Assembly: GCA_965247095.1 (NCBI GenBank)
Contig: OZ251997.1
Coordinates: forward strand, 2,595,689-2,659,688
Reading direction: 5' to 3'
Source of the DNA: Candidatus Multivorans sp.
GTDB lineage: Bacteria > Acidobacteriota > Thermoanaerobaculia > Multivoradales > Multivoraceae
Length of the DNA stretch: 64,000 nucleotides
The notes beneath the pieces are model-generated. The model had not been told where the DNA came from. It did no database searches and saw only the letters and a program-made list of their open reading frames with translations. Shown one piece after another: positions 1-50,474 of this stretch (its first letter is position 1; each line of letters starts with the position of its first letter). The translations under genes were made by a program, and so were the position numbers.

Positions 1-184
1 CGAACCCGCCCGAAAACAGGCCGGGCCGGCCGGTCAGTACGACGGCTCTGGCATCGTCTGCGGCACGGTCGAGCATGGCATTGACGGCAGCGATCATGGG
101 CGGTCCGAAGACGTTGGCCTTGCCGTCGTCCAGGGTGACCAGGGCCACGTCGCCAACCTGCTCGTAGGTGGTCGGTTCAATCAT
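1..184 (-). CDS. enoyl-CoA hydratase/isomerase (crotonase) family protein, N-terminal part; gene continues beyond window start
   Basis: Reverse-strand translation from ATG ~184 gives MIEPTTYEQVGDVALVTLDDGKANVFGPPMIAAVNAMLDRAADDARAVVLTGRPGLFSGGF, a typical crotonase N-terminus; no stop before window edge. Confidence 0.7.
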   Translation of the reverse strand, partial: MIEPTTYEQVGDVALVTLDDGKANVFGPPMIAAVNAMLDRAADDARAVVLTGRPGLFSGGF

Positions 185-230
185 GAATCAGCTCCCTTGG
201 TGTCTGCCCCTCGGGTCAGGGGCGCTTCAT

Positions 231-1400
231 TCAGTTTGCCACCTTGATCTCGCGGATCTTCTTGAGCGGGACCGCGGTGATCTTCTCCGTCAGCCGGTAC
301 TCGAGGTCGCCCGGGTAGACCACCCACAGATGATCGAGACCGAGGTCCTTGCTGACCGTGTGCATCGACTTGGTCGTCCGGGGGGCATCCGCGCACTTGA
401 ACTCGAATCCCCAGCGCCTGCCGCCGCGGAGCAGCATGAGGTCCAGTTCCGCGCCCCGTTGGGTGCCCCAGAAGCATGCCTGGCGCGCACCGAACGCGAT
501 CAGGGTCTGTTCCAGGGCGAAGCCCTCCCAGCTTGGACCGTAGACGGGGTGGCGGACGAGGTCGTCCATCGATTCCAGCCCCAGCAGGTGGTGGAGAATG
601 CCGGAATCGCGGAGGTACACCTTGGGCGCCTTGACGACGCGTTTGCCGACGTTCTCGAACCATGGTTGGAGCACCCGGATCATGAACGTCCCGGCCAGCA
701 GGTCGCGGTAGTGGTTCACCGCGTTGACGCTGACACCCATCGAGCGGCTGAGCGCCGACGCGTTCCAGGTCTGCGAGTGGGCGTGCGCCAGCATGGTCCA
801 GAAGCGGCCTAGCGCCTCCGGCGACACCCTCGACCCGAGTCCCGGCACATCGCGCTCCAGGAACGTGCGCGCGAACGACTCCATCCACAACATGCAGGCG
901 GCATCCGACTCCGCCAGGTAGGCCAGTGGGAAGCCGCCGCGCATCCAGAGCCGGTCCTGGTTCTCCGCTCCCACCTCGTCGAGTGAGAAGCCGCTCACGT
1001 CGGCGAACGAGATGCGCCCAGCCAGGGTCTCGGAAACGCCGCGGATCAGGTCCCAGGAGGCGCTGCCCAGGAGCAGGAAGACGGCTTTCCGCGCAGGGTC
1101 GTCGCAGATCGGACGGAGAATCTCGAACAACTCGGGTACGCGCTGAACCTCGTCGATCACGATCAGCCCCTCGCCGCTTCGAAGGAGCCGCTCCGGAGTC
1201 GCGCGGAACGCCTCGCGAACCGCAGCCACCTCCAGGTCGTAGACCGTGGAGGGTCCCGTCCACGCCGCCACGATCTGTTGGGCGAGCGTCGTCTTGCCCA
1301 CCTGCCGAGCCCCCAGGAGAGCGGTGACCGGTGACTGGGAGAGTCTCCAGAGTGTGGCGTCGAGCAGGCGCTGTCGGGCGGTAGATTGTCGCATATTCAC
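231..1400 (-). CDS. AAA+ ATPase with DUF4143 C-terminal domain (COG1373-like ATP-binding protein)
   Basis: 389-aa ORF; Walker A GARQVGKTT, Walker B LIVIDEVQ, typical DUF4143 C-terminal region; 100 nt downstream of, and co-directional with, the GHKL ATPase gene. Confidence 0.8.
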   Translation of the reverse strand: MNMRQSTARQRLLDATLWRLSQSPVTALLGARQVGKTTLAQQIVAAWTGPSTVYDLEVAAVREAFRATPERLLRSGEGLIVIDEVQRVPELFEILRPICDDPARKAVFLLLGSASWDLIRGVSETLAGRISFADVSGFSLDEVGAENQDRLWMRGGFPLAYLAESDAACMLWMESFARTFLERDVPGLGSRVSPEALGRFWTMLAHAHSQTWNASALSRSMGVSVNAVNHYRDLLAGTFMIRVLQPWFENVGKRVVKAPKVYLRDSGILHHLLGLESMDDLVRHPVYGPSWEGFALEQTLIAFGARQACFWGTQRGAELDLMLLRGGRRWGFEFKCADAPRTTKSMHTVSKDLGLDHLWVVYPGDLEYRLTEKITAVPLKKIREIKVAN

Positions 1401-1500
1401 CCTCAGAGGTGAGGTTTACGACAATAAACCGAGTTGGCGGGCTTGTCCAGCGGTGCTCAGGCGGGTGCTTCGGCCTCGTGGAACTCCTTCGCCTTGGGAC

Positions 1501-2952
1501 CTATGTGCGCTTGAGGACCTTCTCGATGATCTCTCTAGCGGCCCGGCGTGACTCGGCAGACTCCGCGATGGCTTGGAACACCTTCCGATACGTGGCAACG
1601 TCCTCGGTTCTGACGTTCGTCAGCCGCGGGCGGCCACGCTGTGCCCGGAAGTGGGTGAGCCTGCGCTCGATGCTCTCTGCTCGGTCGAGCAAGCCCGCAT
1701 CCCACCCGTCTGTTGTGCGAAGTACGTCTCGAATCCGACCTAGCCGAGTAAGGTCGTGTTCAATCAACCGGCGAGCTACTTCGGCAGTCAGGTACCCAGA
1801 TCGCGCAAGCTCGTACGTCTCCTCCGAGTCCGCAATTGCCGCTGCGAACCTGCGCTCGCGCGTTCTCGTTGCTGAGGTGTTTCTGCAGCGCTCCGCCAGT
1901 CGGCGGAAGATCGCTCCCAGGTGGTTCTCCAGATTTCTCGTGTGGGGTCCGGGCTCGAAGTAGTCTCGCCGGCCGTTCGGGACGATCCTGGGGTCCAGAA
2001 TGTGTATCTCCCCTACGGCCCACCTATTGAGGCGGTCCTCCTTGAACATATGGTCGAAGACGCCTTCGCCGCCGACTTGGATGTTCCCGCATCGCGCTCT
2101 GAGTCCTCTGATACCCGCGCTCTTGGGGATTGCTCCGAGGTAAGACGTGTGGGCAAGCCACCCCGCTGCCGCTCGCTCGCGGCTGTCGATCTTGGGCACG
2201 TCGAACACTTCGAGGGCGCTGAAGGCGTCGCTTCGGCCGGCAGAGAACTCAATGCCCTCGGCATGGGGCCTGGTAACGGCATCGTCGCCGTCGATGGAGA
2301 CGTTCATCGCGTACAGCGCATCTCCAACATACTCTTCGACCATCTCGCGGAAGGGAAAGGCGGTTGAGAGAGGCACTGGACAGACCTCCGCGACGTAGCT
2401 GTGAACCCTCTGCCGGTTCAGGACAGAGCCAGCCGCGTAGCGGGCGACGCCACGGACCTCTACTTCGAAGTACTGGTCGGGCTCTTCGTCGGCATCCAGT
2501 TGTTCCACAGTGACGAAGTCACCTATTCGCTGTTCCGTGTCGGCTAGGTCGTGGTTCCTCAGACGGAGGGCGTCCCAAGTGACGCGGACAGGAGGCTGGT
2601 CCGCGCTGGCCCTGGTGGTGAAAGCGACTGCCTCTGCGAAAGCCAGACCAGCCAGGCGACCGATTCCGCGAAATCCCCTATTGCTGGCGGCGCGCTTGGT
2701 GCTTTGGCCGACCGGAATCAACGAGTCGACGGCTTCCTGGAACGTCAGGCCGGGGCCGTAGTCCCGGATGCGGATCTGGGCCTGCCGAGGGTCGAGGTGA
2801 ATCTCGACTCGGCCGGATCCTGGACTTCCTGTAGTCGCGTCCGCTGCGTTCTGGAGATACTCGCGGTAGAGCGTCAGCGGATCGTCGTACATCCCCGACG
2901 TGACCAGCCGAAGAAGGCTGTGGCCGAGCGCTGGTTCGTTGGAGCTGCTCAT
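1501..2952 (-). CDS. GHKL (Bergerat-fold, MORC/Hsp90-like) ATPase, candidate defence-cassette component
   Basis: 483-aa ORF; N-box LYREYLQNAADA, G1 IRDYGPGLTF (DxGxG), G2 GFRGIGRLAGLAFA (GxxGxG); possible RBS GGGGAGAG before ATG; no histidine-kinase DHp domain, MORC-like. Confidence 0.75.
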   Translation of the reverse strand: MSSSNEPALGHSLLRLVTSGMYDDPLTLYREYLQNAADATTGSPGSGRVEIHLDPRQAQIRIRDYGPGLTFQEAVDSLIPVGQSTKRAASNRGFRGIGRLAGLAFAEAVAFTTRASADQPPVRVTWDALRLRNHDLADTEQRIGDFVTVEQLDADEEPDQYFEVEVRGVARYAAGSVLNRQRVHSYVAEVCPVPLSTAFPFREMVEEYVGDALYAMNVSIDGDDAVTRPHAEGIEFSAGRSDAFSALEVFDVPKIDSRERAAAGWLAHTSYLGAIPKSAGIRGLRARCGNIQVGGEGVFDHMFKEDRLNRWAVGEIHILDPRIVPNGRRDYFEPGPHTRNLENHLGAIFRRLAERCRNTSATRTRERRFAAAIADSEETYELARSGYLTAEVARRLIEHDLTRLGRIRDVLRTTDGWDAGLLDRAESIERRLTHFRAQRGRPRLTNVRTEDVATYRKVFQAIAESAESRRAAREIIEKVLKRT

Positions 2953-3061
2953 GCTCTCCCCACTTGGAGACGGCCGTTCAGGTGATGGCTAGGCCGCCGT
3001 TGAAGGGCTAGCCGTTGTACCACAAGCAACGGGCCAGTAGCTGGCAGAGATCGCTTGGAGG

Positions 3062-4702
3062 CTAGCTCGCAGCCAGGACCTTCGTCGCCCGTGAGCGGGT
3101 GGCGGCGAGCGCCTCCTCGTGGCTGAACAGACCGGCGTCCTCCACGAACTCCTCTTCGCTGGGCATGGCCGGATCGGGATTGAGGGACGGGAACAACGGC
3201 AGTACCCGGTCCCGGACAGTCCCGGGAGCATCCTTCGTGTTGAGCGCATGGAAGCGGAGGAGCTGTCGAGTGGTGGCGTCGCGGGCTCGGTCGTTACTGG
3301 CGCGCTGACACAGGGCCCGTAGCTCGCCGTCCCCTCTAGCCTGAGCGAGGAAGGCGATGAACTCCCTTCTCTCCGACTCGGACAGTCGGGCTCGCAGCGT
3401 GTCGTACTCGTCCCGTGCTCCGGACTGCTCGTACTGCTCTCGGTGGAAGATGAGCGCGTGGGGCAACTCCAGTAGCTGCAAGAACTCCTCCTGGTCCCTT
3501 CCATAGGCGCGCTCGAAGAAGCTCGGGTTGCCGCTGACTACGCCACGGGTGGCCTGCAGCATGATCTGGAAGGACCGCAGGTAGTAGCGGTTCCAGCGCC
3601 TTCCCACGTGTGAGCGGTCCTTCAGCGTCACCGGTTGGTAGCGCATCGGGAACGACCAGATGCGAACGCCGAGCTCTTCGTTCAGGCCGATGTTCAGGCG
3701 CATCCGCTCGTACAGGTCCTCCGGGGAGTCCATGAAGTTGTACAGCATGTAGTTCGACAGCGACGTGATGCCGTTGTCAGCCGCCATCCTCACCGCGGTG
3801 GTGTAGATCTTTCGTAGTCCGATGTGGTCGAAGGCGATCCGGAGGGGGCTGATGCAGATAGTGGCCATCTCGCGCAGGTACATTGGGGACTTGACGAGAA
3901 TCCTTGCGTCCACACCCTGGTTGAAGTCGACGCGGCGCTTCACCGGCCGCTGATCGTTCCGCCTCAGCTTGGCTCCCTGCTCGAAACCGAGGTCGCGAAT
4001 CTCGGCGATGACCTCCTTGTACCGGGCGGACGCAGTGATGTTGTTGTCCATGAGCACGAGGTCCTTCTTGGGCCCGTGTCTCGCGTCTACCCCGTTGACG
4101 AGGGCGGCGAGGGGCGGCATTTCGCGCTGCGCACCCTCAAGTTTCGGGACGCCGCAGAAGGAGCACTTCCGTATGCAGCCCCTTGAGGCATAGCCGAAGT
4201 AGGCGTCCCGCACCGGATAGGTGTAGTCGAGCTGCTCCAGGATGGAGTAGTCCGGCACCATCTCCTCGATTGGAGGGCCGTCAAGGTCGTCCGCACCGAA
4301 CTCGAAGTCCTCCGCGCGAAGCTGAAGGGCTCTTGCCGGCGGGCCGTCCAGCAGTCCCGCGATGAAGCGGACCCCCGCCCACCGTGGCTCCTTGAGGAAC
4401 TCCTCGTGCATGAGCGAGGCAGCGATTCCGCCGACGAAGACCCGTTCGGGCTGGTTACCAGCCGATTGAATGGCGAAGTCGATGGTTTCGGCGGTGCGCT
4501 TCCACTCGAAGCTGAAGAGCGTCGTGACGTAGACGCGGTCCCACGGCTCCAGGAAGAGGCCCTTTTCCGACACACCTTTCGCGAGCGTCACCGCGTCGCC
4601 ACGCTGCCGGTGGTAAGCCGCGATCTTCATGAGCCCGAGAGGCGGGTACTTGTTGCGGTAGCCCGGCTCCAGGAGAAGCACGCGCTTCGTCGGCTCCGTC
4701 AT
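3062..4702 (-). CDS. radical SAM enzyme with N-terminal cobalamin-binding-like domain (class B rSAM-like)
   Basis: 546-aa ORF; CX3CX2C motif in YASRGCIRKCSFCGVP; N-terminal Rossmann-like RVLLLEPGYRNKYPPLGLMKIAAYHRQRGDAV typical of B12-binding rSAM enzymes; start overlaps stop of upstream small ORF (ATGA). Confidence 0.8.
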   Translation of the reverse strand: MTEPTKRVLLLEPGYRNKYPPLGLMKIAAYHRQRGDAVTLAKGVSEKGLFLEPWDRVYVTTLFSFEWKRTAETIDFAIQSAGNQPERVFVGGIAASLMHEEFLKEPRWAGVRFIAGLLDGPPARALQLRAEDFEFGADDLDGPPIEEMVPDYSILEQLDYTYPVRDAYFGYASRGCIRKCSFCGVPKLEGAQREMPPLAALVNGVDARHGPKKDLVLMDNNITASARYKEVIAEIRDLGFEQGAKLRRNDQRPVKRRVDFNQGVDARILVKSPMYLREMATICISPLRIAFDHIGLRKIYTTAVRMAADNGITSLSNYMLYNFMDSPEDLYERMRLNIGLNEELGVRIWSFPMRYQPVTLKDRSHVGRRWNRYYLRSFQIMLQATRGVVSGNPSFFERAYGRDQEEFLQLLELPHALIFHREQYEQSGARDEYDTLRARLSESERREFIAFLAQARGDGELRALCQRASNDRARDATTRQLLRFHALNTKDAPGTVRDRVLPLFPSLNPDPAMPSEEEFVEDAGLFSHEEALAATRSRATKVLAAS

Positions 4703-4899
4703 TTGGCCAGCATCCGGGTCGCGACCTTGCGACTCTTCCCGAACTCGAAGTCCACCATCTTCCTCGTTACCGGGTCATTCTGCAGTCGTCGGACAGCGTG
4801 ACCCTGCTCCTGCCACGCGAGGCTGATGCCGAAACCGCTCGAGACGCGCGTTAGCATATCAATGGTGCGCCGCTGGCCTCTCTCGCTCAAGCGCGTCAT
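4699..4899 (-). CDS. small hypothetical protein (66 aa) translationally coupled to the radical SAM gene
   Basis: ORF MTRLSERGQRRTIDMLTRVSSGFGISLAWQEQGHAVRRLQNDPVTRKMVDFEFGKSRKVATRMLAK; stop overlaps rSAM ATG by 4 nt; weak RBS; lies in the AT-richer island. Confidence 0.3.
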   Translation of the reverse strand: MTRLSERGQRRTIDMLTRVSSGFGISLAWQEQGHAVRRLQNDPVTRKMVDFEFGKSRKVATRMLAK

Positions 4900-5032
4900 G
4901 GGCCGGTCTGTCTCGCTCCTCGCCGCGCCAGCGAAGACCGGGCCGCGAGGCCAACTCCAAGATGGTCGAGCTTGTGAGTATTGTCGCATCCAGCTTCGAC
5001 CTCTGCCTCTCGCTTGTGGGACACCAGTCCTA

Positions 5033-7363
5033 CTAAACCGCCTGAGATTCAGCGATATCTTCCGGAAAGTACTTCTCGACCTTCTCAACATACTGGTTGA
5101 CGAAGGCGACCTGGTCCGGGGTCAGGACACCGCGCTCAGGGTGCGCCACGATGTTGCGAATATCGTTGAGTTTCTTGATCCATTGCGTGTTTGCCTTCAT
5201 GTTGTCCCTGTTACTCGCGTCCAGCGATATCACTTCTTTGAATAGCTGCCAATTGCGGTGACATATGTCGATATAGTTTATCAGAAAGAGTTGAGATTCT
5301 TCATTGCCCTCACGTCGCCGCTCTTCCCACCGGGCCATGCATTGCTGGCGGATCGTGAGCGGGATTCCTTCCGTCCACCACTCTGTGCCCTGCGCGCCAT
5401 AGTGTCCCTTCAACGCCACGATGACGTAGTCAAAGAGCCTACGCTGTATCTTTCGCACCTTGGCGCTCGCTTCTTCTGTACCCGCTTCATCGCGGGAATC
5501 CAAGTACTGCTGCAGCCCTGGCGGCCTGAAGCTGGGGATCGTCTGGCCAATATGCGCCTCCAAACCGTAGGCCTGCCGCCGCACGGCTGTCAGGGAAGAG
5601 CCAATGCGCCTAAAGGACTGGATCTCTTGCGGTGATGCGTTCTTCAAGTAGCCGACCAAGACCTGAAGATACGGCCGGATTTCCCCGAAGGTCTCTTCTG
5701 CATTGAAGAGACTGAGGTCCACGCCGTCCGTGCGACGGACATGGTCAGCAATATCTTCAATAACGTGAAACAGAGCCCGAATGCCGTTGTTGGTACACAG
5801 ATATCCACCGGCTCGGTCGCCGAGCTCCCAGTGGCTCGCGAGCCCCGCCGCGAACATGTTGAGGCACTCCGAGAGCACCCATAGGGCCTTCCTGAGGTTC
5901 GCGTTGTAGTCGTCGGTTCTGGCCGTAGACAGGGGGCCCGGCACAACCGCACCTCTAGCGAAGGCTCCCAACAGCTTGGCAACTCTGAGCCCGTCCCGCA
6001 CCGAAGTCTGTGTCAGGCAGCGATAGTGGCTCTTCCTCTTTCCGGTGACGACCAGGCGGTCATGGAGCGGCGAGGTGCTGTCGCGGTTGAGGCGGGAGGC
6101 GATACGCGAGAGTAGGGCCTGAAACGCTTCTTCACGGTCGGAAGAGCCCCAATGAAGGTCAGCGTAAAGCTCGACCAAGAGTCCTGTGCTCACCTTGACC
6201 TGCTTGCTGTTGATATCGATGAAGAGGTTCATCTCCTCCTCGGAAGGTAGGTTTTCATAGGCCAGCACGGACAGGACGGTTGAATCCTTGTTGAATCCCT
6301 CTTGTGCTCGCGCATAGGCGTAGCCATAGAGCCTATGCTGGCCGTCGATGATCCAGGCCGAGGCGTAGTTCGGTGGCAGATAGAGTGTGCCCCAGGCCTC
6401 GTCACCGTAGGTCTGCTTCGCATCGAAACGCATCCGAGTTTTCTTGCGGTTCTTCAAGTTGACAACGATATTTGTCGGAAACCTGCCGCCGCCATTGATG
6501 TATTGTGCGATCTTCTTCAGCCGGCGCGGCTGGAGCATGCGCTGGTATGTTTCCAAATTGTCGATGTCCCGGCTTGCCTTGTGGCCAACATAGGCGATCT
6601 TCAAGAGCTCGCCAGGGCTGATGAGGAAAGTGTAGAACGTCTCGCCGCCCATCCTGCCGCGGGTCGCTACGACTTGTCGGACTAGGCCGGGGATCTTCTG
6701 GCCGCCGAACATGTGCCCCAAGAACTGGTAGCGGGCCGCGCGTTTGAGGTGCTTCACGAGCTTCGCATAGTAGTCGAGTTCCCCGTCCGTGACGACCGCA
6801 ATCTCCGCCTTCTCGCACTTCGCAAGGTCCGCATCGCTCCATGAGACATTTCGTGTGGCGATGATAAATCTGACTTTGAGCCCCGACTGCCGGCCGTAGG
6901 CCTTGCGGACCGACTTGAGCAAGTTGCCCCGGATTGCCGTGATGTTCTCGATCAGCGGCGCCATGCGCTTCGTGCCCGGGGTGCCACGCTGCGTGCACTC
7001 GACGATGATGACGGTTTCGTCGTCCTTGGCGAACACATCGATCTGACGTCCTGGCGGGCCATCTTCGACGGCGATCGTGAACTTGCGGCCTTTGTTCATT
7101 TCATCGAAGCCCATCTGAGCTAGGATGCACCAAACTTCGTCCTCAAGCTGCTCGTCAGCAGGCTTCTCCTGGGCCATTCGCGTTGACTTGGCGTTCTTTC
7201 TGACCGTCCGCCAACCGTTAGCTGCTTCCAGCTTGACCTTTTGAGCGACAAGCTCCTTCGACGAACCCGAGACAGTCTTATAGATATCCGGCTTTTTCCG
7301 GCTCCTGAGCTCGGATGTGATCTCATCGCCGGATAAGAGGGGGTCTAGGTATTGGTCGGTCAT
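5033..7363 (-). CDS. DGQHR-domain (DndB/ParB-like) protein with C-terminal HEPN-like domain; candidate restriction/effector component
   Basis: 776-aa ORF; exact DGQHR motif in AWIIDGQHRLYGYAY (~aa 335); C-terminal NDIRNIVAHPERG carries the HEPN Rx4H signature; N-terminal ~170 aa has D..E-x-(K/Q)-like residues (IDVFAKDDETVIIVECTQ), possibly nuclease-like; clearly lower GC than surrounding genes. Confidence 0.85.
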   Translation of the reverse strand: MTDQYLDPLLSGDEITSELRSRKKPDIYKTVSGSSKELVAQKVKLEAANGWRTVRKNAKSTRMAQEKPADEQLEDEVWCILAQMGFDEMNKGRKFTIAVEDGPPGRQIDVFAKDDETVIIVECTQRGTPGTKRMAPLIENITAIRGNLLKSVRKAYGRQSGLKVRFIIATRNVSWSDADLAKCEKAEIAVVTDGELDYYAKLVKHLKRAARYQFLGHMFGGQKIPGLVRQVVATRGRMGGETFYTFLISPGELLKIAYVGHKASRDIDNLETYQRMLQPRRLKKIAQYINGGGRFPTNIVVNLKNRKKTRMRFDAKQTYGDEAWGTLYLPPNYASAWIIDGQHRLYGYAYARAQEGFNKDSTVLSVLAYENLPSEEEMNLFIDINSKQVKVSTGLLVELYADLHWGSSDREEAFQALLSRIASRLNRDSTSPLHDRLVVTGKRKSHYRCLTQTSVRDGLRVAKLLGAFARGAVVPGPLSTARTDDYNANLRKALWVLSECLNMFAAGLASHWELGDRAGGYLCTNNGIRALFHVIEDIADHVRRTDGVDLSLFNAEETFGEIRPYLQVLVGYLKNASPQEIQSFRRIGSSLTAVRRQAYGLEAHIGQTIPSFRPPGLQQYLDSRDEAGTEEASAKVRKIQRRLFDYVIVALKGHYGAQGTEWWTEGIPLTIRQQCMARWEERRREGNEESQLFLINYIDICHRNWQLFKEVISLDASNRDNMKANTQWIKKLNDIRNIVAHPERGVLTPDQVAFVNQYVEKVEKYFPEDIAESQAV

Positions 7364-7577
7364 GCCGCTGCTCCCTGGTGAGTCGACTATCTCGCATCAT
7401 GTCGCTGGAGGCGACATTCGTGGACCTGTGCCTCAGGGTGTTCCGCGGACGCAGTACCGGAAGGCGAAGGAAGGGCGTTGAAGCTGGACGTGAGTTTCGG
7501 GAGGCTAGCACTTCGGTTGCTGGGAGTCAGATCGGCCCGGAACCTGTCAACGACATTGACACAGCGGGGTTCTGGAT

Positions 7578-8630
7578 TTACTGAGTCGTCTCTGCAGTCT
7601 CGTTGTCGGGCTTGTTGATCCAGACGGCCTGGGGCAGTGGCGTATGCATCGGTTGGCCGCCGACGAATCGTTCGGGGGAGCTTTCCCAGGCGGCGCTCAG
7701 CGTGCGTTGGCGCTGCTCGATCACGGCTTGCGCCCGGCCGTAGTGGACGGTCTCGGGGGTCAGCATGGCGATGCCGGCATGGCGGTGTTCCGTGTTGTAC
7801 CAGGGGAAGAAGGACCTGCAGTAGTCGGTCGCGGCGTCCTGGTTGGGGAAGCGGCTGGGGAAGTCGGGGTGGTACTTGAGGGTCTTGAACTGTGCTTCGG
7901 AGTAGGGGTTGTCGTCGCTGACCCGCGGGCGGCCCAGGGACCGGTTCACGCCGAGGCGGGCGAGCAGTTGGGCGGTACCCTGGCTGGTCATGGGGGCGCC
8001 TCGATCGGAATGCAGGGTCAGGACATGGGGCTTGACGCCGTGCTTGAGGCAGGTCTCCTCGATGAGCCTTTGGGCGAGCGCGGAGTTCTCGCGGTCGGCG
8101 ACCATCCAGCCGACCGCGTAGCGGCTTAGGAGGTCAAGCAGGACGTAGAGGTAGTAGTAGGTCCAGGTCTGCGGTCCGAGCAGCCTGGTGATGTCCCACG
8201 ACCAGACCTGGTTGGGCGCGACAGCGACCAGCTCCGGCTTGGCGTACGACGGATGGACGCGCTGGTTGCGGCGGTCCCTCACGGGGTGGTTCGCTTCGAG
8301 GATGCGGTACATCGTGCGCTCCGAGCACAGGTAGCGGCCCTCGTCGAGCAGGGTGGCCACCACTTCTCCCGGCGAACGATCGACGAAACGCGGCGACGCA
8401 AGCGTGGCCTCGACCCGTTTCCGCTCGATCTGGCTCAGTGCCCGGGCAGGCGTGGGGCGGGGCTGCCGTCGCCCGGGAGCGGGCCTCGCACGACGATAGA
8501 AGGTCGATCGCGATACGCCCAGCGCCCGGCACGCCGGCGCGACGCCGACCTGCCGGGCCAGGGACCTTGCCGCCATCAGCAGTCCTTCCCGTCTTCGAGG
8601 CTGAATCCCAGCAGCCCTGCAACTTTTCCC
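7578..8630 (-). CDS. IS3-family transposase OrfB (DDE integrase core), expressed by -1 frameshift from OrfA
   Basis: rve-type region WSWDITRL…TWTYYYLYVLLDLLSRYAVGW…HSDRGAPMTS…PRVSDDNPYSEAQFKTLKYH; the ORF-track frame extends upstream to 8867 only through overlap with orfA. Confidence 0.8.
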   Translation of the reverse strand, partial: GKSCRAAGIQPRRREGLLMAARSLARQVGVAPACRALGVSRSTFYRRARPAPGRRQPRPTPARALSQIERKRVEATLASPRFVDRSPGEVVATLLDEGRYLCSERTMYRILEANHPVRDRRNQRVHPSYAKPELVAVAPNQVWSWDITRLLGPQTWTYYYLYVLLDLLSRYAVGWMVADRENSALAQRLIEETCLKHGVKPHVLTLHSDRGAPMTSQGTAQLLARLGVNRSLGRPRVSDDNPYSEAQFKTLKYHPDFPSRFPNQDAATDYCRSFFPWYNTEHRHAGIAMLTPETVHYGRAQAVIEQRQRTLSAAWESSPERFVGGQPMHTPLPQAVWINKPDNETAETTQ

Positions 8631-9061
8631 TGGACGTCCAGGATCGTGTGCGCGGCGGCGACTTCCCTCTCGAGACGCTTGACCTTCGCTTCCAGCCGCT
8701 TCACCTTCGGCATCAGAGGGTTGGCCTCGTTCGGCTTGCGGCCCCGCTTCTTCGGCCTCAGACCGGAAAGCGCGCCCTCGCGCCGCGCCTTGCGCCAGTT
8801 GGCCAGATGGGAGCTGTACAGACCCTCTCGCCGCAGCAGCCGACCCACCTCGCCGCGGTGGGTGCATCGGTCCGCTTCCTCCAGAATCCGCAGCCGGTAC
8901 TCCGCCGTGAACTGCCGCCTGGTCGGTCTCGCCAGCACTTCCGGGTCGGGAACCGCCCCGGCGGGCGCCGCGCCGGCCGCGGGGGCCTCGTCGCTACGCT
9001 CCTCAACCCCCGCGGCCGGGAGCTCCGAGCCGCCGCCAAACCTCTGCTCTCGTCTTGACAT
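8576..9061 (-). CDS. IS3-family transposase OrfA
   Basis: MSRREQRFGGG…RQFTAEYRLRILEEA…LANWRKARREG… typical IS3 OrfA with HTH and leucine-zipper region. Confidence 0.8.
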   Translation of the reverse strand: MSRREQRFGGGSELPAAGVEERSDEAPAAGAAPAGAVPDPEVLARPTRRQFTAEYRLRILEEADRCTHRGEVGRLLRREGLYSSHLANWRKARREGALSGLRPKKRGRKPNEANPLMPKVKRLEAKVKRLEREVAAAHTILDVQGKVAGLLGFSLEDGKDC

Positions 9062-9183
9062 TGATCCTCCTTGCCAACGTGTGCCCTCCACTATTCAACG
9101 GGATGGCCGCTGTGTCACGTACGTTGGCAGAGAGGGGCCGTAGGGGCGCTGACGCGTGGTTCGGAACGTGTTGGCTTCCGCCC

Positions 9184-10380
9184 TCAGAGCATTCGCGCGG
9201 CGATCCAGGGCAGGGCGACCGCGGTGCCCAGCACGCTGCCGAGGTTGCTCAGCACGACGACCAGGAGCACGCGTGTAAGGCGGTTGGACCAGAAGCCGCG
9301 CGCGGAACTGAGGCTGTCGGCGAGGTTCTCCATGTCCGCCACCAGGGGCCGGCGGAGCAGCGCCTGGACCAGTCCCGCGACCCAGCCGGCGGCGATCAGC
9401 GGGTTCAAGCTGGTCAGGGGCGCGGCGGCGAAGGCCGAGGCGATGGTCAGCGGATGCCCCAGGGCGATCGCGGCCCCTAGGGCGGACAAGCTGCCGTTGA
9501 TCAGGATCCAGAGGTAGATCGACTCGACCGACCGCTCGCGATCGCCGGTCAGGAAGCCGTAGGCCAGGAGCGCGATGATCGCGATCGGCAACGCCCACTT
9601 GACGATGCGCGGCCAGAGCGGCGGCTCGGGCAGTCGCTCGAGTTCCTCCAGATCGCAGGGCGAGCCCGCGAGGCTCGTGATGCCGGGCACGTGCCCGGCG
9701 CCGACCACGGCCACCGTGCGCGGACCTGCCGACTGGCGCAGCTTCTCGGCCATGTACGCGTCCCGTTCGTCGATCAGGGTGCCCTTGACGCTGGGCAATG
9801 CCTCGGCGAGGGCGGACACCAGGTCGCTCAGGTTGCCGCTGTCGCGGAGCTGCTCGATGTCCTCTTCCTTCAGGTCGTCGCCGACGAAGGCGCTGCCGGC
9901 CAACTGGGTCATCACCTTCGTCCGCTGCCAGAAGCCGAGTGAGGCCCAGGTGCGCTTCAGCGAGATCTGGATGTCGCGGTCGATCAGTTCGAGGCGTGCG
10001 CCGCGTTCCCGGGCCCGGGCGATCGCCTCTCTCATCTCGGCGCCGGGCTCGATGCCGAAGCGCTGGGCGATGCGCCGCTGGAAGGAGTGCATCAGGAACG
10101 AGCTGAGCAGCAGCGCCGCCTTGCCCTCGCGCAGGACCTGGAAGATGTCCAGCTTGCGCCACGACTCCTGGTCCTCCAGGTTGCGGTAGCGGGCCTCGCA
10201 GAGTTCGACGCAGACGGTGTCGGGCTCGAGCGCCTCGATCGCCTCCTTCGTGTCGCGCACGCTCTGCGGCGAGACGTGCGCGGTGCCGACCAGGAAGACC
10301 TCCCGCTCGTCGAGTTCGAGTCGCTGCACCGAGGCGGGCAGGTCGGGGGGCGCCGGTTGGCGCTCGGCTTCGGACATCAT
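9184..10380 (-). CDS. TraB/GumN family protein
   Basis: Start at MMSEAERQ (ATGATG at 10375-10380); TraB-family hallmarks FLVGTAHVSPQSVRD, …VVGAGHVPGI…, C-terminal transmembrane segments. Confidence 0.7.
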   Translation of the reverse strand: MMSEAERQPAPPDLPASVQRLELDEREVFLVGTAHVSPQSVRDTKEAIEALEPDTVCVELCEARYRNLEDQESWRKLDIFQVLREGKAALLLSSFLMHSFQRRIAQRFGIEPGAEMREAIARARERGARLELIDRDIQISLKRTWASLGFWQRTKVMTQLAGSAFVGDDLKEEDIEQLRDSGNLSDLVSALAEALPSVKGTLIDERDAYMAEKLRQSAGPRTVAVVGAGHVPGITSLAGSPCDLEELERLPEPPLWPRIVKWALPIAIIALLAYGFLTGDRERSVESIYLWILINGSLSALGAAIALGHPLTIASAFAAAPLTSLNPLIAAGWVAGLVQALLRRPLVADMENLADSLSSARGFWSNRLTRVLLVVVLSNLGSVLGTAVALPWIAARML

Positions 10381-10486
10381 GGCAGCGCGGAGCGTAGCCG
10401 ACGGCCGGCTGGAGGCGAAACCGCGGCGGCGTCGAGTACGATGTTGTGTTCCAGGTCGTGATGGCAGGGCTGATGGGAGGATTGGA

Positions 10487-12016
10487 ATGGAAGTGATGAG
10501 AGACCATTGCCCCGTGGCGGCACGGGCGCTGGCGATGGGCGCCCTGGTGTTCCTTGCCTGCACCGCGCCCGACGCCGATGCCCCCGTCGCGGATGCCGGC
10601 GCCGGCCCGCGGCCGAACATCGTTCTCATCCTTGCCGACGATCTCGGCTACGCCGACATCGGCATCTACGGCAGCGAGGTGATCTCGACCCCGAACATCG
10701 ACGCGCTGGCCGCGAGCGGCGTTCGCTTCACGGCGGGCTACGTCAGCCATCCGGTGTGCAGTCCGTCGCGGGCCGGGCTGATGACCGGGCGCTACCAGCA
10801 GCGCCACGGCTGGGAGTTCAACCCGGCCGGCCGGGATGTCGGCGCCGGCATGAGTCTCGAGGAGACGACCCTGGCCGACCGGATGAGGGCTCTGGGGTAC
10901 CGGACCGGCATGATCGGCAAGTGGCACCTGGGCCGCCAGGCGCCCCATCATCCGGTGAGCCGCGGCTTCGACGAGTACTTCGGCGTGCTCGAAGGCGGCA
11001 GCATCTTCATCGACTCCAGCCTGCCGGGCGTGGAGTACGGCTCGATCCGCGGCGAAGACGGGCCGACGGTCCGCCGGAACAAGGTGCTGCGGGGGTTCGA
11101 GGAAGAGAAGGTCGACCGCTACCTGACCGACGTGTTCACGGAGGAAGCGACAAGCTTCATCGAGCGCAGCGCGAGCGGTGAAGAACCCTTCTTCCTCTAC
11201 CTCAGCCACACGACGCCGCACACGCCGCTCCAGGCCACGGCCGAGTACCTGGACGGCTACCGCCACATCGAAGATCAGCGCACCCGCGTCTACGCGGCCA
11301 TGGTCGCGTCGCTCGACGAGAGCGTGCGGCAGGTGGTCGAGACGCTCAAGGCACAGGGCGTGTACGAGAACACGATGATCGTCTTCGCCAGCGACAACGG
11401 CTGCGCCGGCTACATTCACGCCGCCTGCTCGAACGCGCCGCTCTTCGGTTTCAAGCGCTACCACCACGAAGGCGGCGTGCGGATTCCCTTCATCATCAGT
11501 TGGCCGGAAGGAATCGAGGGAGGGCGGACGTTCAATCAACCGGTGATCACCCTCGACTTCACGGCGACCTTCACGGCTGCGGCGGGCCAGGAAGCAAAGG
11601 CGGGCGACAGCGTGAACCTGCTGCCGTACATGACCGGCGAGGCGGACGGCGCGCCGCACGAGTACCTCTACTGGCGGGCCGGCGCCAGCGTCGCGATCCG
11701 CGACGCCCAGTACAAGCTGATCAAGCTGAACCGCACCGAGTTCCGGCCCGACGATCTGCGCGGGGACGGCCGTTTGCAGCCGCCCGAAGGCGGCTGGCCC
11801 ACGGATTCGCCCCACGGGCAGGCCACCCTGCTCTACGACCTGGAAGCCGACATCGGCGAGTTGAACAACCTGGCGGCGGAGCAGCCGGAGGTCGTCGCCC
11901 GTCTCGAAGCCGAGTTGGATGCGTGGCGCGCCACGTTGCTGAGCGAGCCGATCCTGCCGGGTGTGCGTTCCACGATCACCGAGATCGATGGTGAGTGGGT
12001 CCAATTGGTATTCTGA
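10487..12016 (+). CDS. sulfatase (arylsulfatase family), secreted/lipoprotein
   Basis: MEVMRDH… start with GGGAGG RBS; signal peptide; ILADDLGYAD, CSPSRAGLMTGR (C-x-P-x-R FGly motif), GKWHLG. Confidence 0.85.
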   Translation: MEVMRDHCPVAARALAMGALVFLACTAPDADAPVADAGAGPRPNIVLILADDLGYADIGIYGSEVISTPNIDALAASGVRFTAGYVSHPVCSPSRAGLMTGRYQQRHGWEFNPAGRDVGAGMSLEETTLADRMRALGYRTGMIGKWHLGRQAPHHPVSRGFDEYFGVLEGGSIFIDSSLPGVEYGSIRGEDGPTVRRNKVLRGFEEEKVDRYLTDVFTEEATSFIERSASGEEPFFLYLSHTTPHTPLQATAEYLDGYRHIEDQRTRVYAAMVASLDESVRQVVETLKAQGVYENTMIVFASDNGCAGYIHAACSNAPLFGFKRYHHEGGVRIPFIISWPEGIEGGRTFNQPVITLDFTATFTAAAGQEAKAGDSVNLLPYMTGEADGAPHEYLYWRAGASVAIRDAQYKLIKLNRTEFRPDDLRGDGRLQPPEGGWPTDSPHGQATLLYDLEADIGELNNLAAEQPEVVARLEAELDAWRATLLSEPILPGVRSTITEIDGEWVQLVF

Positions 12017-12078
12017 GCCCGGCTGCTGACGTGCGCCGTGCCGCCCTCACCGCGGCGAACGATGCGGGCTGCTGAAGC

Positions 12079-25132: not shown

Positions 25133-25826
25133 CTACATGCGGTCCGCGAGCTGCAGCGCCGGATCGAACAGGCGATTCGGCGCCTCGTCCTCGCCCAGGA
25201 GGAACCGGATCTCGTCGTCGTAGCCGGTCATCTCCCAGCGGCTGAGCGAGATCGGGATGATGCTGCCGGCCAGGAACTCGTCGATGAAGTCTCTGAGCAC
25301 GAAGTCGTCGCCGAGTTGCATCGCGCGTTCGCGGAACAGTTTCATGAAGTGGGCCTTGCCGACCACGACGCCGGTGTGGAAGCCGGGGAAGCGCAGGTTG
25401 TTCGTAGATGCGCGCCTCCCGAGGGGCGGCCCAGATCGCGATCGTGGCGAGATCCGAAGCGCCTTCGGTCAGGTTGGACCTGGCCTGTTCGTAGATCTTC
25501 GGCACCGCTCGCAGGGTCGTCCGGTACTCCTCCAACTCTCCGTCGTCGAACGGCGGCTCGAGTTCGAAGAGGGTCCGGAAGCCCGCCATCGCCGGTCCGG
25601 CGCCGCCCTGAGACATCAGGTAGAACGCGGGATCCCGGGACCACGGCCGGGTCACCCGATGGTGGAAGTCGAGCCCGTTCATCTCGGCGCGGACCAGGTG
25701 ATGGTCGATCTGCTCGGAGACGGGCCAGTCGTCGATTTCGATGGCGGCCAGCCGCGCCTTGTAGTCCTCGAGCCCTTGGCGTTGCCGCTCCATCGCCTCG
25801 GCGGTGTAGTCGGACACGCCGCCCAC
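25133..25826 (-). pseudogene. DUF885-family remnant (N-terminal region joined by frameshift/deletion to the C-terminal ~80 aa)
   Basis: Frame A has a DUF885 N-region (…DPAFYLMSQ…EYRTTLRAVPKIYEQ…); near 25385 the sense frame switches to …NLRFPGFHTGVVVGKAHFMKLFRERAMQLGDDFVLRDFIDEFLAGSIIPISL…, the DUF885 C-terminus; ~300 aa of catalytic core absent; the ORF-track 'M' start is a GTG. Confidence 0.5.
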
Positions 25827-26166
25827 GATCTCGGGCTCCTGGAAGACGCGGAAGTCCTCGAAGAGCTGCAGGAGACATGCGGGCTCCTTCTCAGCGAAGT
25901 GGCGGGTCTTCTTGGCGTCCGAGAGGGCTACTCACTGGCAAGCTCCGCGATTGACAGGAGTTATCCATGAGGCAATAGTCAGTGTGTGCTCGGCCAGGAG
26001 ACCGTGCCCGGGCGTCCCACGTTGGGCATCGCCGACCTCCACCGCCGATGGTACTCCTCGGGCGGAGAGAGGGTGATACCGTGCCCGGCCCCCGGAGGGG
26101 CACTGACCTGCCGGTCACACTCCAGAGGCGATGGACGTCCGGTGCCCCGGACCAGGGTTCGCGGCA

Positions 26167-26934
26167 ATGACTAACTCCTCCCGGCCAAATCGCATTCGCA
26201 CACTGGCCAACGCGCCGATTCGCGAGGCGCTGATAGACCTCCGCTGCGAGTTGCCGGAAGGTCAGGACGCCGAGCTGTTGGCCAGATTCGATGCCGCTCA
26301 TCGGGGGATCGAGAGCGAGTTCCCCGAGAAGGGGAAGAACTACGCGGCGAGTGTTTCTGCCGAGTTGAAAGAAGGTACGGATCCAGCAGTTGCCGCGACC
26401 GCGGCGTTGCGTGGATACCACTTCAGGAACTCTCAAGGAGACAAGATCGTCCAGTTTCGCCTTGATGGCTTCACTTTCAACAAGCTGCGCCCCTATACGA
26501 AATGGGCGCAACTCCGGGCGGAGGCTGAGACTCTGTGGACGAAGTACAGGTCGTTGTTGTCGGAAGTTCGGGTTACGAGGGTTGGCGTCCGTTACATCAA
26601 CGAGATCCAGGTTGCCCCCGGGGTCGGTTTCGAGACCATCTTCGTAGAGCCCCTGAGACAGCCGCTGGGCTTCGGTCAGGGTCGAATTCGGCAGTCTTTG
26701 GAGCGACTTCAAATCTCGAGTCACGACGCCTTCGAGAGGACGATAGTGACCCGCCTAGCTAGAGAAGAGAAAGCGGGGTTCACTGTGATCCTCGATATCG
26801 ACGCCTTTGCCGTGGCGCCAGATGGGGCCTTCGAGGACTGCGAGGTGTGGGCGCGTATTGACGAACTTCGTAGCCGGAAGAACGAGATCTTCTTCAGCAG
26901 TTTGACTGCCAACGGAATCGAGAGGTACGCATGA
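26167..26934 (+). CDS. hypothetical protein, possibly TIGR04255 family
   Basis: MTNSSRPNRIRTLANAPIREALIDLR…RVGVRYINEI…; AT-richer than surroundings; stop overlaps next ORF (ATGA). Confidence 0.5.
   Translation: MTNSSRPNRIRTLANAPIREALIDLRCELPEGQDAELLARFDAAHRGIESEFPEKGKNYAASVSAELKEGTDPAVAATAALRGYHFRNSQGDKIVQFRLDGFTFNKLRPYTKWAQLRAEAETLWTKYRSLLSEVRVTRVGVRYINEIQVAPGVGFETIFVEPLRQPLGFGQGRIRQSLERLQISSHDAFERTIVTRLAREEKAGFTVILDIDAFAVAPDGAFEDCEVWARIDELRSRKNEIFFSSLTANGIERYA

Positions 26935-50397: not shown

Positions 50398-50474
<77 letters not shown>

Follow-up and report, generated by a model that had tools for sequence, protein, structure and literature searches.

A radical SAM enzyme (rSAM) and a GHKL ATPase form the conserved core, a near-invariant pair, of a gene cassette that is horizontally mobile and widespread and that joins this pair to partner modules. 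Together with a partner, the two almost certainly constitute a conserved functional unit, and we consider it likely that the cassette is a nucleic-acid conflict system of the anti-phage or anti-plasmid type. The copy analyzed here lies in a 64,000-nucleotide stretch of DNA from a Candidatus Multivorans sp. (the window), where the relevant features are:

231-1400, minus strand: DUF4143/AAA_14 ATPase, 389 aa (profile matches to DUF4143, 4e-38, and AAA_14, 1e-20)
1501-2952, minus strand: GHKL (Bergerat-fold) ATPase, 483 aa (HATPase_c match and invariant motifs)
3062-4702, minus strand: rSAM enzyme, 546 aa (weak Radical_SAM match and cysteine motif)
4702-4836, minus strand: putative decayed 3'-end remnant of a ParB2 gene (local alignment to the ParB2 of locus L010)
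5033-7363, minus strand: DGQHR-HEPN partner protein, 776 aa (TIGR03187, DpdB and HEPN_Swt1 matches)
6791-7159, minus strand: its N-terminal putative PD-(D/E)xK-like domain, aa ~69-191 (structure model)
5750-6667, minus strand: its DGQHR ParB-fold domain, aa 233-538 (profile match)
5111-5446, minus strand: its C-terminal Swt1-like HEPN domain, aa 640-751 (weak profile match)
7544-9130, minus strand: insertion sequence (IS), outside the cassette (transposase ORF and inverted repeats)

The original prediction had described four intact, co-directional genes bearing characteristic motifs, and all four are present on one strand at the positions it gave, separated (in the order listed) by 100, 109 and 330 nt. 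The AT-richer composition that it reported is borne out by the GC profile, which is 0.54-0.61 over positions 4751-7750 and 0.61-0.65 over 1251-4750 versus 0.65-0.73 over most of the window. At third codon positions the GHKL and DGQHR genes have a GC content (GC3) of 0.73, compared with 0.84-0.86 in the genes for rSAM and DUF4143 and 0.83-0.94 in most window genes. The left flank is part of an enoyl-CoA hydratase gene (its first ~61 codons), identified via the orthologous gene of locus L007.

The pairing of rSAM with GHKL was seen in two collections. Among 80 representative genomes with rSAM, which define the locus counts out of 80 given here, the GHKL gene lies directly downstream of the rSAM gene in 79, and full-length rSAM and GHKL genes occur on an identical set of 12 plasmids among 72,556. 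The rSAM is translationally or operonically coupled to the GHKL ATPase; the stop and start codons of the two genes overlap in loci L005, L087 and L090. Full-length DGQHR-HEPN genes were found on five plasmids, every one within the set of 12. An rSAM gene adjoins a DGQHR-HEPN gene (at least 60% identical) in 17 of 19 metagenome loci and also adjoins 28-50% identical DGQHR-HEPN relatives at at least 17 loci. Homologues do co-occur elsewhere, in an association far above chance. The compact arrangement of DGQHR-HEPN, rSAM and GHKL is found again in Algicella, Mesorhizobium, Novosphingobium pNL1 and Agrobacterium, and also in many MAGs and metagenome contigs.

The partner modules are alternative or stackable. 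ParB-SNF2-ParB accompanies the core at 55/80 loci, NurA-HerA plus a second GHKL protein (GHKL2) at 10/80 and DGQHR-HEPN at 8/80, with stacked modules in L104, L107, L108, L090 and L091. Of the triad that had been put forward, rSAM and GHKL are the conserved core and DGQHR-HEPN is a minority partner. In close relatives (Candidatus Multivorans MAGs) the same chromosomal locus retains the flanks and the rSAM-GHKL pair at ~80-94% nucleotide identity with the partner module swapped. The SNF2 gene of related cassettes resembles DpdE and ZorD. In ParB-SNF2-ParB-type cassettes the ParB2 gene precedes and overlaps the rSAM start; elsewhere the overlapping ParB-fold gene is ParB2 or a short DGQHR gene. 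The translation of window positions 4702-4836 aligns with the C-terminus of L010 ParB2 (AVRRLQNDPVT versus AIRKLLDNPQT) with a local score of 55 versus 25.4 +/- 4.2 for shuffles, a score reached by 1 of 2000 shuffles, and its frame terminates in an ATGA overlapping the rSAM start. This alignment hints that the segment may be a decayed ParB2 tail left behind. No ParB-fold reader is present in the NurA-HerA-type loci.

Two neighbors were set apart from the cassette. The DUF4143 ATPase, originally counted as a member, does not belong to it; its gene is a lineage-specific neighbor, probably independent, that lies within 8 kb of rSAM in 8/80 loci, four of them close relatives with shared locus synteny (sometimes with insertions between), and is missing from most others. 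The protein is 91-94% identical in L007-L010 regardless of partner type; a DDE transposase or about 3 kb separates its gene from the GHKL gene in L007 and L010. In PADLOC it matches the candidate single-gene system PDC-S01 (6e-80). The IS, which comprises an rve-type DDE transposase ORF (7578-8867) between 24-nt imperfect inverted repeats (7544-7567 and 9107-9130), is separated by 180 nt from the start of the DGQHR gene, on its upstream side. The IS had been taken for an island boundary, but is missing from the orthologous loci L007-L010, where homology picks up again at window positions ~9181-9228; it was inserted, in the window only, at a locus with core-genome flanks.

In the rSAM, an N-terminal Rossmann domain resembling B12-binding domains is combined with a partial TIM barrel, in which the motif C176-x3-C180-x2-C183 is invariant, and a helical C-terminal domain; an acidic motif in the tail, V-E-D-A-G-L-F (aa 520-526), is conserved. 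The B12-like radical SAM architecture that had been claimed is present. No family HMM reached its cut-off in Pfam and NCBIfam profile searches and PADLOC gave no match of any kind. The best structural matches were the class B methylases TsrM, TokK, CysS and MgmA, AprD4, and the methylthiotransferases RimO and MiaB, all of which share the Rossmann-plus-rSAM-barrel architecture but only 11-17% sequence identity. To our knowledge none of these acts on DNA. The rSAM lacks the auxiliary-cluster cysteines and the TRAM domain of methylthiotransferases, and the helical C-terminal domain and acidic tail set it apart from these relatives and the class B enzymes. Cobalamin use is a candidate feature only, possibly as methyl carrier; AprD4, a cobalamin-independent enzyme, is an equally good match. 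The rSAM is unusually strongly conserved, and ~70% identical proteins are spread over many phyla. The cassette is found in only about 0.3% of species genomes. Phages carry distant relatives of the rSAM: in Marinitoga virus 1 the neighbor is HerA-NurA, and in LoVEphage the surrounding genes include C5- and N6-DNA methyltransferases.

The GHKL protein gave a weak HATPase_c match (1e-4) and its homologues match HATPase_c_3. The complete N/G1/G2 Bergerat motifs noted earlier (E31/N35/D38, D64xGxG68 and G93xxGxG98) are invariant, and a family-specific motif, P-N-G-R-R-D-x-F-E, spans aa 325-333. MORC/paraMORC-like, as it was first described, is a candidate label only; the nearest profiles are HSP90-family (1.5e-11), sacsin and MutL modules, all under the NCBIfam cut-offs. 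Common to the cassette and the MORC/paraMORC systems (Iyer, Abhiman and Aravind 2008) are a GHKL ATPase with intact ATP-binding motifs, proximity to SNF2-type helicases and nucleases, and mobile operons; neither a radical SAM nor a ParB partner is mentioned in the 2008 paper.

The 776-residue protein has the same sequence as P0121 (100% identity), and more than 100 homologues share 67-76% identity with it. It matches TIGR03187 (DGQHR, 3e-55) and DpdB (6e-17) in NCBIfam, DpdB (6e-18) and, on its HEPN part, PDC-M34B in PADLOC, and HEPN_Swt1 (1e-4, sub-threshold) in Pfam. Q274-R275, D340-G-Q-H-R344, F381/N385 and R736-x4-H741 are invariant in 20 homologues, and these include the exact DGQHR and C-terminal HEPN Rx4H motifs that had been predicted. 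That prediction had overlooked the N-terminal domain, where a low-confidence AF2 model has an alpha-beta-beta-beta-alpha-beta topology and the best local Foldseek matches, with weak E-values, are the nuclease-bearing proteins Cdn1, Card1, AF1548 and EndoMS. We tentatively call it PD-(D/E)xK-like; the call is tentative because the model is poor (pLDDT 56). Fusions of DGQHR/DUF262 domains to PD-(D/E)xK and HEPN domains accompany DNA-modification systems (Makarova 2013).

The cassette is cargo of one ICE and of conjugative plasmids and also forms small insertions between housekeeping genes. Its neighbors include TA, methyltransferase, AAA_15/21 and ubiquitin-like (Bil-type) genes, and many cassettes lie outside recognizable defense islands. 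Modularity of partners at a conserved core is typical of defense systems. Neither the rSAM nor the system has a model in PADLOC 2.0, NCBIfam or Pfam, and a full-text literature search found no description; the combination of DGQHR-HEPN, rSAM and GHKL is, as first suspected, undescribed in the databases and literature searched.

The roles suggested at first, modification-restriction or abortive infection, are conjectural. How the cassette might work can be modeled on Dnd, Ssp and Dpd, and a modification-plus-reader mechanism is the reading we favor, though at somewhat less than even odds. A dimer of the GHKL ATPase would clamp or remodel DNA and hand it to the rSAM, which by 5'-deoxyadenosyl radical chemistry would give host DNA an unusual chemical mark. 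The ParB-fold partner (the DGQHR domain here, ParB2 or short DGQHR proteins elsewhere) would use its NTPase switch to sense whether the mark is there and release nucleases on unmarked invader DNA. PD-(D/E)xK would act on DNA, and HEPN would attack RNA as a suicide arm held in reserve; the SNF2 or HerA-NurA translocase-nucleases would be the modules released in other variants. All catalytic motifs of the three cassette genes are intact. Several analogies speak for the mechanism: DGQHR proteins are relatives of DndB and DpdB, the DpdB-DpdA pairing resembles the ParB-fold gene overlapping the rSAM start, the SNF2 gene is DpdE- and ZorD-like, distant rSAM relatives have the phage neighbors named above, and DGQHR/DUF262 fusions keep company with DNA-modification systems. 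Against it stand the unusual conservation of the rSAM, the lack of any apparent variable target-recognition domain, the NurA-HerA loci lacking a reader and the many loci outside defense islands. On metagenome contig L096 the DGQHR-HEPN gene is intact, but what lies next to it is a decayed stub of the rSAM gene, and GHKL is missing. This argues against a strict logic in which unmodified self is lethal; it would still be compatible with an Ssp-like scheme, where the reader is switched on by the mark. DNA as the rSAM substrate is a proposal only, with nucleotide, RNA or protein as alternatives.

A nucleotide substrate is the basis of the leading alternative, which we judge unlikely. The rSAM would turn a free nucleotide into a chain terminator or second messenger, as viperin does with CTP, and DGQHR, ParB and GHKL proteins would bind the product and switch on HEPN, PD-(D/E)xK, NurA and PIN nucleases, giving abortive infection with no DNA mark. 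Prokaryotic viperins, the only rSAM defense enzymes known to us, act on NTPs, and ParB-fold domains are NTP-binding switches. The combination of one conserved enzyme with changing nuclease effectors recalls CBASS, Thoeris and type III CRISPR, where HEPN and PIN effectors are typical; L096 is tolerated, and extreme rSAM conservation fits a universal small-molecule substrate. However, most of the partners are DNA translocase/nuclease machines with several subunits (SNF2, HerA-NurA), not single effectors gated by a ligand, CARF, SAVED, STING and TIR-type sensor domains were not found, the rSAM fold is class-B/methylthiotransferase-like rather than viperin-like, and the tight coupling to a DNA-clamp-type GHKL ATPase is left unexplained.

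Two further readings are improbable, to a similar degree. The GHKL ATPase could clamp foreign DNA received from ParB, SNF2 or HerA sensors and translocases for the rSAM to damage or cross-link by hydrogen abstraction, without self-marking. Spore photoproduct lyase is an rSAM enzyme that acts directly on DNA, and an invariant core with varying DNA-handling modules and no target-recognition domain would fit; but most partner modules already have nucleases, which makes a second radical effector redundant, and such a scheme lacks precedent and does not explain self/non-self discrimination. Alternatively, the cassette might not serve immunity at all, being a mobile DNA-repair or maintenance module (rSAM lesion reversal, a MutL-like GHKL and SNF2 or HerA-NurA motors) or an epigenetic or addiction system of plasmids and ICEs. 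Repair proteins are known from each of the component families (MutL, SNF2, HerA-NurA, spore photoproduct lyase, ParB), many loci lie among housekeeping genes, and plasmids and an ICE carry the cassette. The toxin-type HEPN, PIN and PD-(D/E)xK domains point elsewhere, and so do the patchy distribution with cross-phylum transfer, the low frequency (that ~0.3% of species genomes) and the exchange of modules at a single locus, all of them features that mark conflict systems and not repair. That unrelated genes came together by chance at a recombination-prone spot, for which the adjacent IS and the merely neighboring DUF4143 gene could be cited, is refuted for the three-gene unit by rSAM/GHKL co-occurrence (79/80, 12/12) and by DGQHR-HEPN-rSAM linkage at 28-100% identity in unrelated contexts, and retains practically no probability.

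Dpd, which comprises DpdA/DpdB/DpdC plus DpdD-K and carries out 7-deazaguanine DNA modification and restriction, shares with the cassette a DGQHR ParB-fold protein beside an enzyme that acts, or in the cassette would act, on DNA, DpdB being the best relative after the generic domain (PADLOC, NCBIfam). The SNF2 helicase of related cassettes resembles DpdE, and the cassette is likewise mobile and patchy. It lacks the tRNA-guanine-transglycosylase-like DpdA, DpdC and preQ0 genes, its enzyme being instead the radical SAM protein with the GHKL ATPase, and its DGQHR protein, which carries nuclease domains, scores 61.7 versus 300 bits against DpdB, far below the cut-off. The phosphorothioate systems Dnd and Ssp (DndABCDE-DndFGH, SspABCD-SspE) combine a conserved modification core with alternative restriction modules, the logic proposed for the cassette. 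DndB is a DGQHR protein; SspE, which reads the mark on DNA, is a fusion of a nuclease with a ParB-fold (DUF262) NTPase. The four proteins of the cassette region match no DndA/C/D/E or SspA-D models (PADLOC, NCBIfam), TIGR04172 reaches 86.5 bits with a cut-off of 450 bits (NCBIfam), and an rSAM stands in place of sulfur chemistry. The type IV GmrSD, BrxU and DUF262-nuclease enzymes also combine, in one polypeptide, a nuclease with a ParB-fold NTPase that has QR, DGQ(H/Q)R and FxxxN motifs, but in place of HNH (DUF1524) the cassette has PD-(D/E)xK-like and HEPN nucleases, and the 776-residue protein is obligately linked to rSAM and GHKL. With prokaryotic viperins (pVip) the cassette would share the use of a radical SAM enzyme in antiviral defense; viperins are single-gene systems without the N-terminal Rossmann/B12-like domain. 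If the proposal is correct, the cassette would be an anti-phage/anti-plasmid system built on unusual radical chemistry on nucleic acids.

Profile searches and alignments bore out the four co-directional genes and the motifs that the original prediction had named for them. The genes are intact and lie head-to-tail, with intergenic gaps of 100, 109 and 330 nt.

Cassette region of the window
231-1400, minus strand: DUF4143 gene, 389 aa, AAA_14 and DUF4143 profile matches
1501-2952, minus strand: GHKL ATPase gene, 483 aa, Bergerat motifs
3062-4702, minus strand: radical SAM enzyme (rSAM) gene, 546 aa, C176-x3-C180-x2-C183
5033-7363, minus strand: DGQHR-HEPN gene, 776 aa, TIGR03187
7544-7567 and 9107-9130: inverted repeats of an rve-type insertion sequence (IS), 180 nt away from the DGQHR gene on its upstream side

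The stretch had been described as AT-richer, and its GC content is below that of the surroundings over all four genes (0.54-0.61 across the DGQHR gene and 0.61-0.65 across the next three, versus ~0.66-0.73 elsewhere), yet GC3 is host-like in the rSAM and DUF4143 genes (0.84-0.86, versus 0.73 in the GHKL and DGQHR genes). A promoter and terminator scan gave nothing informative. A second GC dip in the window (0.61 at 25257-27431) holds three ORFs of lower GC3 (0.67-0.72) that have no Pfam or PADLOC match, and a PADLOC scan of the other low-GC3 ORFs of the window was likewise without matches. A second rve-type integrase/transposase gene (47688-48929), accompanied by a KorA-like HTH, lies ~1.5 kb from a tRNA-Met (50398-50474). 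Window positions 47575-50474 are 95% identical to 3136-5720 of L007, an orthologous locus in a close relative, where ~2 kb separates this segment from the DGQHR-HEPN gene downstream of it. Hence, the two genomes share a mobile element located at different positions.

The rSAM, GHKL and DGQHR-HEPN genes form a conserved unit in which the rSAM-GHKL core is near-invariant, the nucleic-acid-handling partners are interchangeable and the catalytic motifs are intact. Homologues of rSAM number in the thousands, many being ~70% identical across phyla, and their neighbourhoods have the constant order rSAM followed by GHKL ATPase. A search with an rSAM alignment yielded 552 loci from genomes representing 185,579 species; in the best 80 of these the GHKL gene directly follows rSAM in 79 of the 80 representative genomes. 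Full-length rSAM and GHKL proteins are encoded by exactly the same 12 records among 72,556 plasmids, and the stop and start codons of the core genes overlap in several cassette versions. In the same best 80 of 552 loci the partner module was a ParB-like protein, a small ORF, an SNF2 helicase and a second ParB-like protein (ParB-SNF2-ParB; for example L002 6019-13136) in 55, NurA-like and HerA-like proteins plus a paralogous GHKL (NurA-HerA-GHKL2) in 10 and a DGQHR-HEPN protein of the 776-aa type in 8, with a few loci having none of these three modules. On alphaproteobacterial plasmids the start of rSAM lies within the end of a gene for a short DGQHR protein (~340 aa), a PIN-like plus GHKL pair is also found, and several modules are stacked in one locus. 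Metagenome contigs also carry the single array ParB-SNF2-ParB-rSAM-GHKL-DGQHR-HEPN.

The linkage is equally recurrent when approached from the DGQHR-HEPN side. The core is present in all five plasmids that encode full-length DGQHR-HEPN, rSAM adjoins DGQHR-HEPN copies of at least 60% identity in 17 of 19 metagenome loci, and it lies beside relatives of only 28-50% identity in at least 17 loci. The triad also stands alone in unrelated contexts: in an ICE of Algicella marina, beside chemotaxis genes in Mesorhizobium and within the menaquinone operon of a MAG, which it splits. Homologues of three of the four genes thus co-occur elsewhere, decisively so, and the objection that they never do fails for rSAM, GHKL and DGQHR-HEPN. 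Given this co-occurrence across genomes, plasmids and metagenomes, the triad cannot owe its adjacency to chance.

Other genes were seen around the core in homologous loci. The pair of a PIN-like protein (~620-650 aa) and a paralogous GHKL recurs beside the rSAM cassette in alphaproteobacterial plasmids and chromosomes (L006 6328-9775; L087 2081-5634; L090 11303-14786; L091 809-4131) and may be either a two-gene system of its own or one more accessory module. In Chloroflexota MAGs some rSAM-GHKL cores are flanked by a pair consisting of a GHKL-like protein (~550-630 aa) and a ~320-350-aa protein (L063 6736-9491 and 13192-16122; L046 6556-9386; L074 10374-13039). A distant clade (L125-L138; for example L129 6412-9916 and L132 6947-10493) has a ~750-aa relative of the long DGQHR protein (~30% identity) together with a shorter rSAM (~410-430 aa, ~42% identity), and no GHKL gene was detected beside this pair with the reference sequences used. 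Downstream of the cassette, a Holophagales relative encodes a 792-aa AAA_15/AAA_21 ATPase together with ThiF, DUF6791 and Multi_ubiq genes (L003 13456-17917; L004 7870-12331); the latter genes are of the Bil type of ubiquitin-like conjugation, and the surroundings of L003 and L004 are those of a defence island. Some loci have an XRE-family HTH gene just upstream of the partner module (L008 5483-6226; L002 5593-5892), and its product may regulate transcription of the cassette. The IS occupies this position in the window.

Two elements of the original prediction did not survive. The DUF4143 gene, proposed as a cassette member, lies within 8 kb of rSAM in just 8 of the best 80 of 552 loci, four of which are close relatives of the window. 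In close relatives its identity is 91-94% regardless of the partner module, sometimes with a transposase or ~3 kb before the GHKL gene. Owing to this sparse co-occurrence and an identity independent of partner type we rejected it as a system component; it gave the only PADLOC candidate-system match (single-gene candidate PDC-S01) and should be regarded as a separate, neighbouring gene. The IS had been taken as the island boundary, a role we rejected because it is absent from the loci of all relatives. The observation itself therefore stands and its interpretation stands in part; the system should be re-centred on rSAM plus GHKL with alternative partners, and DUF4143 and the IS should be dropped.

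The nearest relatives of the window are from Candidatus Multivorans and acidobacterial MAGs, and most hosts of the best 80 of 552 loci are uncultured MAG lineages, several of them named as sponge symbionts. Many of the host MAGs are assembled to chromosome level, probably from long reads. Window positions 1-4691 and 9186-14498 align with L008, another orthologous locus, at ~90% nucleotide identity. The flanks are core genes (enoyl-CoA hydratase on one side; a TraB/PrgY-family gene, a sulfatase and a PBP on the other), and between them rSAM-GHKL-DUF4143 is kept at ~80-94%. The partner is another DGQHR-HEPN allele of just 70% nucleotide identity in L007 and L008, NurA-HerA-GHKL2 in the orthologous locus L009 and ParB-SNF2-ParB in L010. 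The 330-nt spacer of the window holds an apparent decayed C-terminus of ParB2 (the gene that precedes rSAM in ParB-SNF2-ParB cassettes) having an ATGA overlap with the rSAM start, a weak match with a score reached by 1 of 2000 shuffles. It was the only such trace, as tblastn gave no remnants of SNF2, ParB1 or short DGQHR in the window. From the partner swaps in relatives and the ParB2 remnant, the window cassette probably descends from a ParB-SNF2-ParB form whose module was replaced. Module swapping at a fixed core is, like transfer across phyla and presence on plasmids and an ICE, a signature of conflict systems.

The 546-aa protein has the CX3CX2C motif in a partial TIM barrel that defines the radical SAM superfamily, and C176, C180 and C183 are invariant in our alignments. 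Its model (pLDDT 79) comprises an N-terminal Rossmann domain, the radical SAM barrel and a helical C-domain, and the top Foldseek matches were TsrM, OxsB and RimO. MiaB/RimO methylthiotransferases have a three-Cys auxiliary cluster in an N-terminal UPF0004 domain and a C-terminal TRAM domain. This identity was rejected because rSAM has no cysteine before C176; methylthiotransferase HMM scores were 15-17 bits versus cut-offs of 251-357, and the C-terminal part, modelled as helices, gave no Pfam TRAM match. The Foldseek matches and the lack of the methylthiotransferase N-terminal cysteines argue that rSAM is class-B-like in predicted architecture. The Rossmann domain matches cobalamin-binding domains, with PF02310 detected below threshold and only in distant relatives. 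AprD4, an equally good structural match, is cobalamin-independent, so that cobalamin binding by rSAM is putative.

rSAM falls under no family model of Pfam, NCBIfam or PADLOC, a Pfam scan of its longer, distant relatives gave no informative domain fusion, and a PDB sequence search with the three cassette proteins gave nothing useful. The broader family comprises ~270 clusters at 50% identity (E <= 1e-30). At the C-end a disordered linker is followed by a strongly conserved acidic (E/D)-x-V-E-D-A-G-L-F motif (aa 520-526, window 3125-3145; rSAM alignments A1 and A2), kept even in a 55%-identical alphaproteobacterial clade; the motif resembles a peptide on which a partner protein docks. Phages encode shorter relatives (24-32% identity), including those of Marinitoga camini virus 1 (L088 5998-9824), next to HerA and NurA genes, and a Bacteroides LoVEphage (L089 5974-6891), among C5- and N6-DNA methyltransferase and PAPS-reductase genes. 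Such relatives hint that viruses have a wider family of rSAM enzymes directed at nucleic acids.

The GHKL protein has the complete Bergerat motifs expected of it (ExxxNxxD, DxGxG and GxxGxG): the N-box (E31, N35, D38), G1 (D64xGxG68) and G2 (G93xxGxG98) are invariant in 11 sequences including GHKL2, as is a family-specific PNGRRDxFE motif, and homologues match HATPase_c_3 above cut-off. Profile matches were to generic GHKL, HSP90-family and MutL only, with marginal TmtA matches in PADLOC (E ~0.008). The hallmark of MORC is an S5-fold transducer domain with a GhXhhpXXRhl motif, and paraMORC has its own family-specific features (2008 MORC paper).

The DGQHR assignment of the 776-aa protein is firm: TIGR03187 scores 187.8 bits versus a 58.85-bit cut-off, and Q274-R275, D340-R344 (DGQHR) and F381/N385 (FxxxN) are invariant in homologues. 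HEPN domains are all-helical with a conserved Rx4-6H motif. The 776-aa protein has R736-x4-H741, invariant in homologues, in a C-terminal region modelled as helices (pLDDT ~75-87); the HEPN_Swt1 profile scored 22.6 bits, below its 27.5-bit cut-off, and four homologues (P0187, P0209, P0221 and P0222) have a precomputed PF18731 match. The pNL1 DGQHR-HEPN homologue found here is presumably Saro_3948. A ParB(Saro_3948)-HEPN fusion is in the list of Anantharaman et al. 2013. As the AF2 model of the 776-aa protein is poor overall (pLDDT 56), the fold search gave just weak local matches, the best being to nuclease-bearing proteins; residues 69-191 are modelled with the alpha-beta-beta-beta-alpha-beta topology of restriction endonucleases. 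The predicted PD-(D/E)xK, ParB-fold and HEPN architecture matches a general class that accompanies DNA-modification systems (Makarova et al. 2013).

How might the cassette act? By analogy we tentatively favour a logic like that of Dnd, Ssp and Dpd, in which the GHKL ATPase would handle DNA on behalf of rSAM, rSAM would place a mark on the DNA, ParB-fold NTPase readers (the DGQHR domain, ParB2 or short DGQHR) would couple recognition of the mark to nucleases or translocases and thereby restrict, and HEPN would be a suicide back-up. In favour are the affinity of the DGQHR domain to DndB and DpdB, the translational coupling of a ParB-fold gene to rSAM, the constant core with variable restriction-type modules and the phage rSAM relatives beside DNA methyltransferase genes. 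Against it, a variable specificity domain is absent, NurA-HerA-type loci have no ParB-fold reader, and one metagenome contig (L096 567-3218) has an apparently intact DGQHR-HEPN gene followed by a frameshifted 71-codon rSAM stub, with no GHKL, a case that bears on whether the partner alone is toxic. The more specific proposal that rSAM-GHKL installs a new covalent DNA modification by radical, possibly cobalamin-dependent chemistry, read by ParB-fold reader-nucleases for self/non-self discrimination, is less likely than not, though realistic; the mark could be, for instance, a methyl group on an unactivated carbon of a base or sugar, or a backbone alteration. The product is unlikely to be, instead, a nucleotide (of viperin type or a second messenger) to which the NTP-binding ParB folds would respond. 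We give little credence to direct damage of foreign DNA by radicals, and a mobile repair or maintenance module seems improbable.

The unit is widespread, robustly conserved and apparently undescribed. If it is a defence system, a large family (thousands of proteins and ~550 loci in representative genomes of 185,579 species) would join the bacterial immune repertoire, its conserved engine would be an rSAM of a class unknown in immunity or on DNA, and it would offer a route to new nucleic-acid chemistry and enzymatic tools. Were the mark reading true, cellular genomes would have a first epigenetic immune mark based on radical SAM chemistry. The exchange of ParB-SNF2-ParB, NurA-HerA and DGQHR-HEPN at one core is a natural experiment on sensor/effector module exchange. 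The cassette appears especially common in sponge-symbiont lineages and is a candidate for their unexplained richness in defence genes; it is also found on rhizobial and sphingomonad plasmids, and thus in culturable, directly testable hosts.

Comparison with known systems sets the cassette apart. In Dnd systems DndA/IscS, DndC (PAPS-reductase-like), DndD (SMC-like ATPase) and DndE are encoded with DndB. Membership was rejected because the cassette proteins have no DndA, DndC, DndD or DndE match in PADLOC or NCBIfam; DndB profile matches were weak (PADLOC 7e-4; Pfam DndB 1e-12, N-terminal half only). Dpd, in which DpdA (TGT-like transglycosylase) and DpdC adjoin DpdB, was rejected likewise, no cassette protein matching DpdA or DpdC in PADLOC or NCBIfam, and the DpdB equivalog gave the 776-aa protein 61.7 bits versus a 300-bit cut-off. 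No system model of PADLOC 2.0 covers rSAM plus GHKL, rSAM itself having zero matches there, and PGAP annotates the cassette genes with generic names. The MORC (2008), HEPN (2013) and Dnd-reappraisal (2024) papers do not tie rSAM to these partners, and in freely accessible full-text literature we found no description of a system uniting rSAM with ParB, SNF2, MORC, GHKL, HerA/NurA or DGQHR. The claim that the combination is undescribed thus holds across PADLOC 2.0, NCBIfam, Pfam and that literature. We class the cassette as of defence type, modular in build, with ParB-fold components and coupled to a putative nucleic-acid-modifying enzyme.
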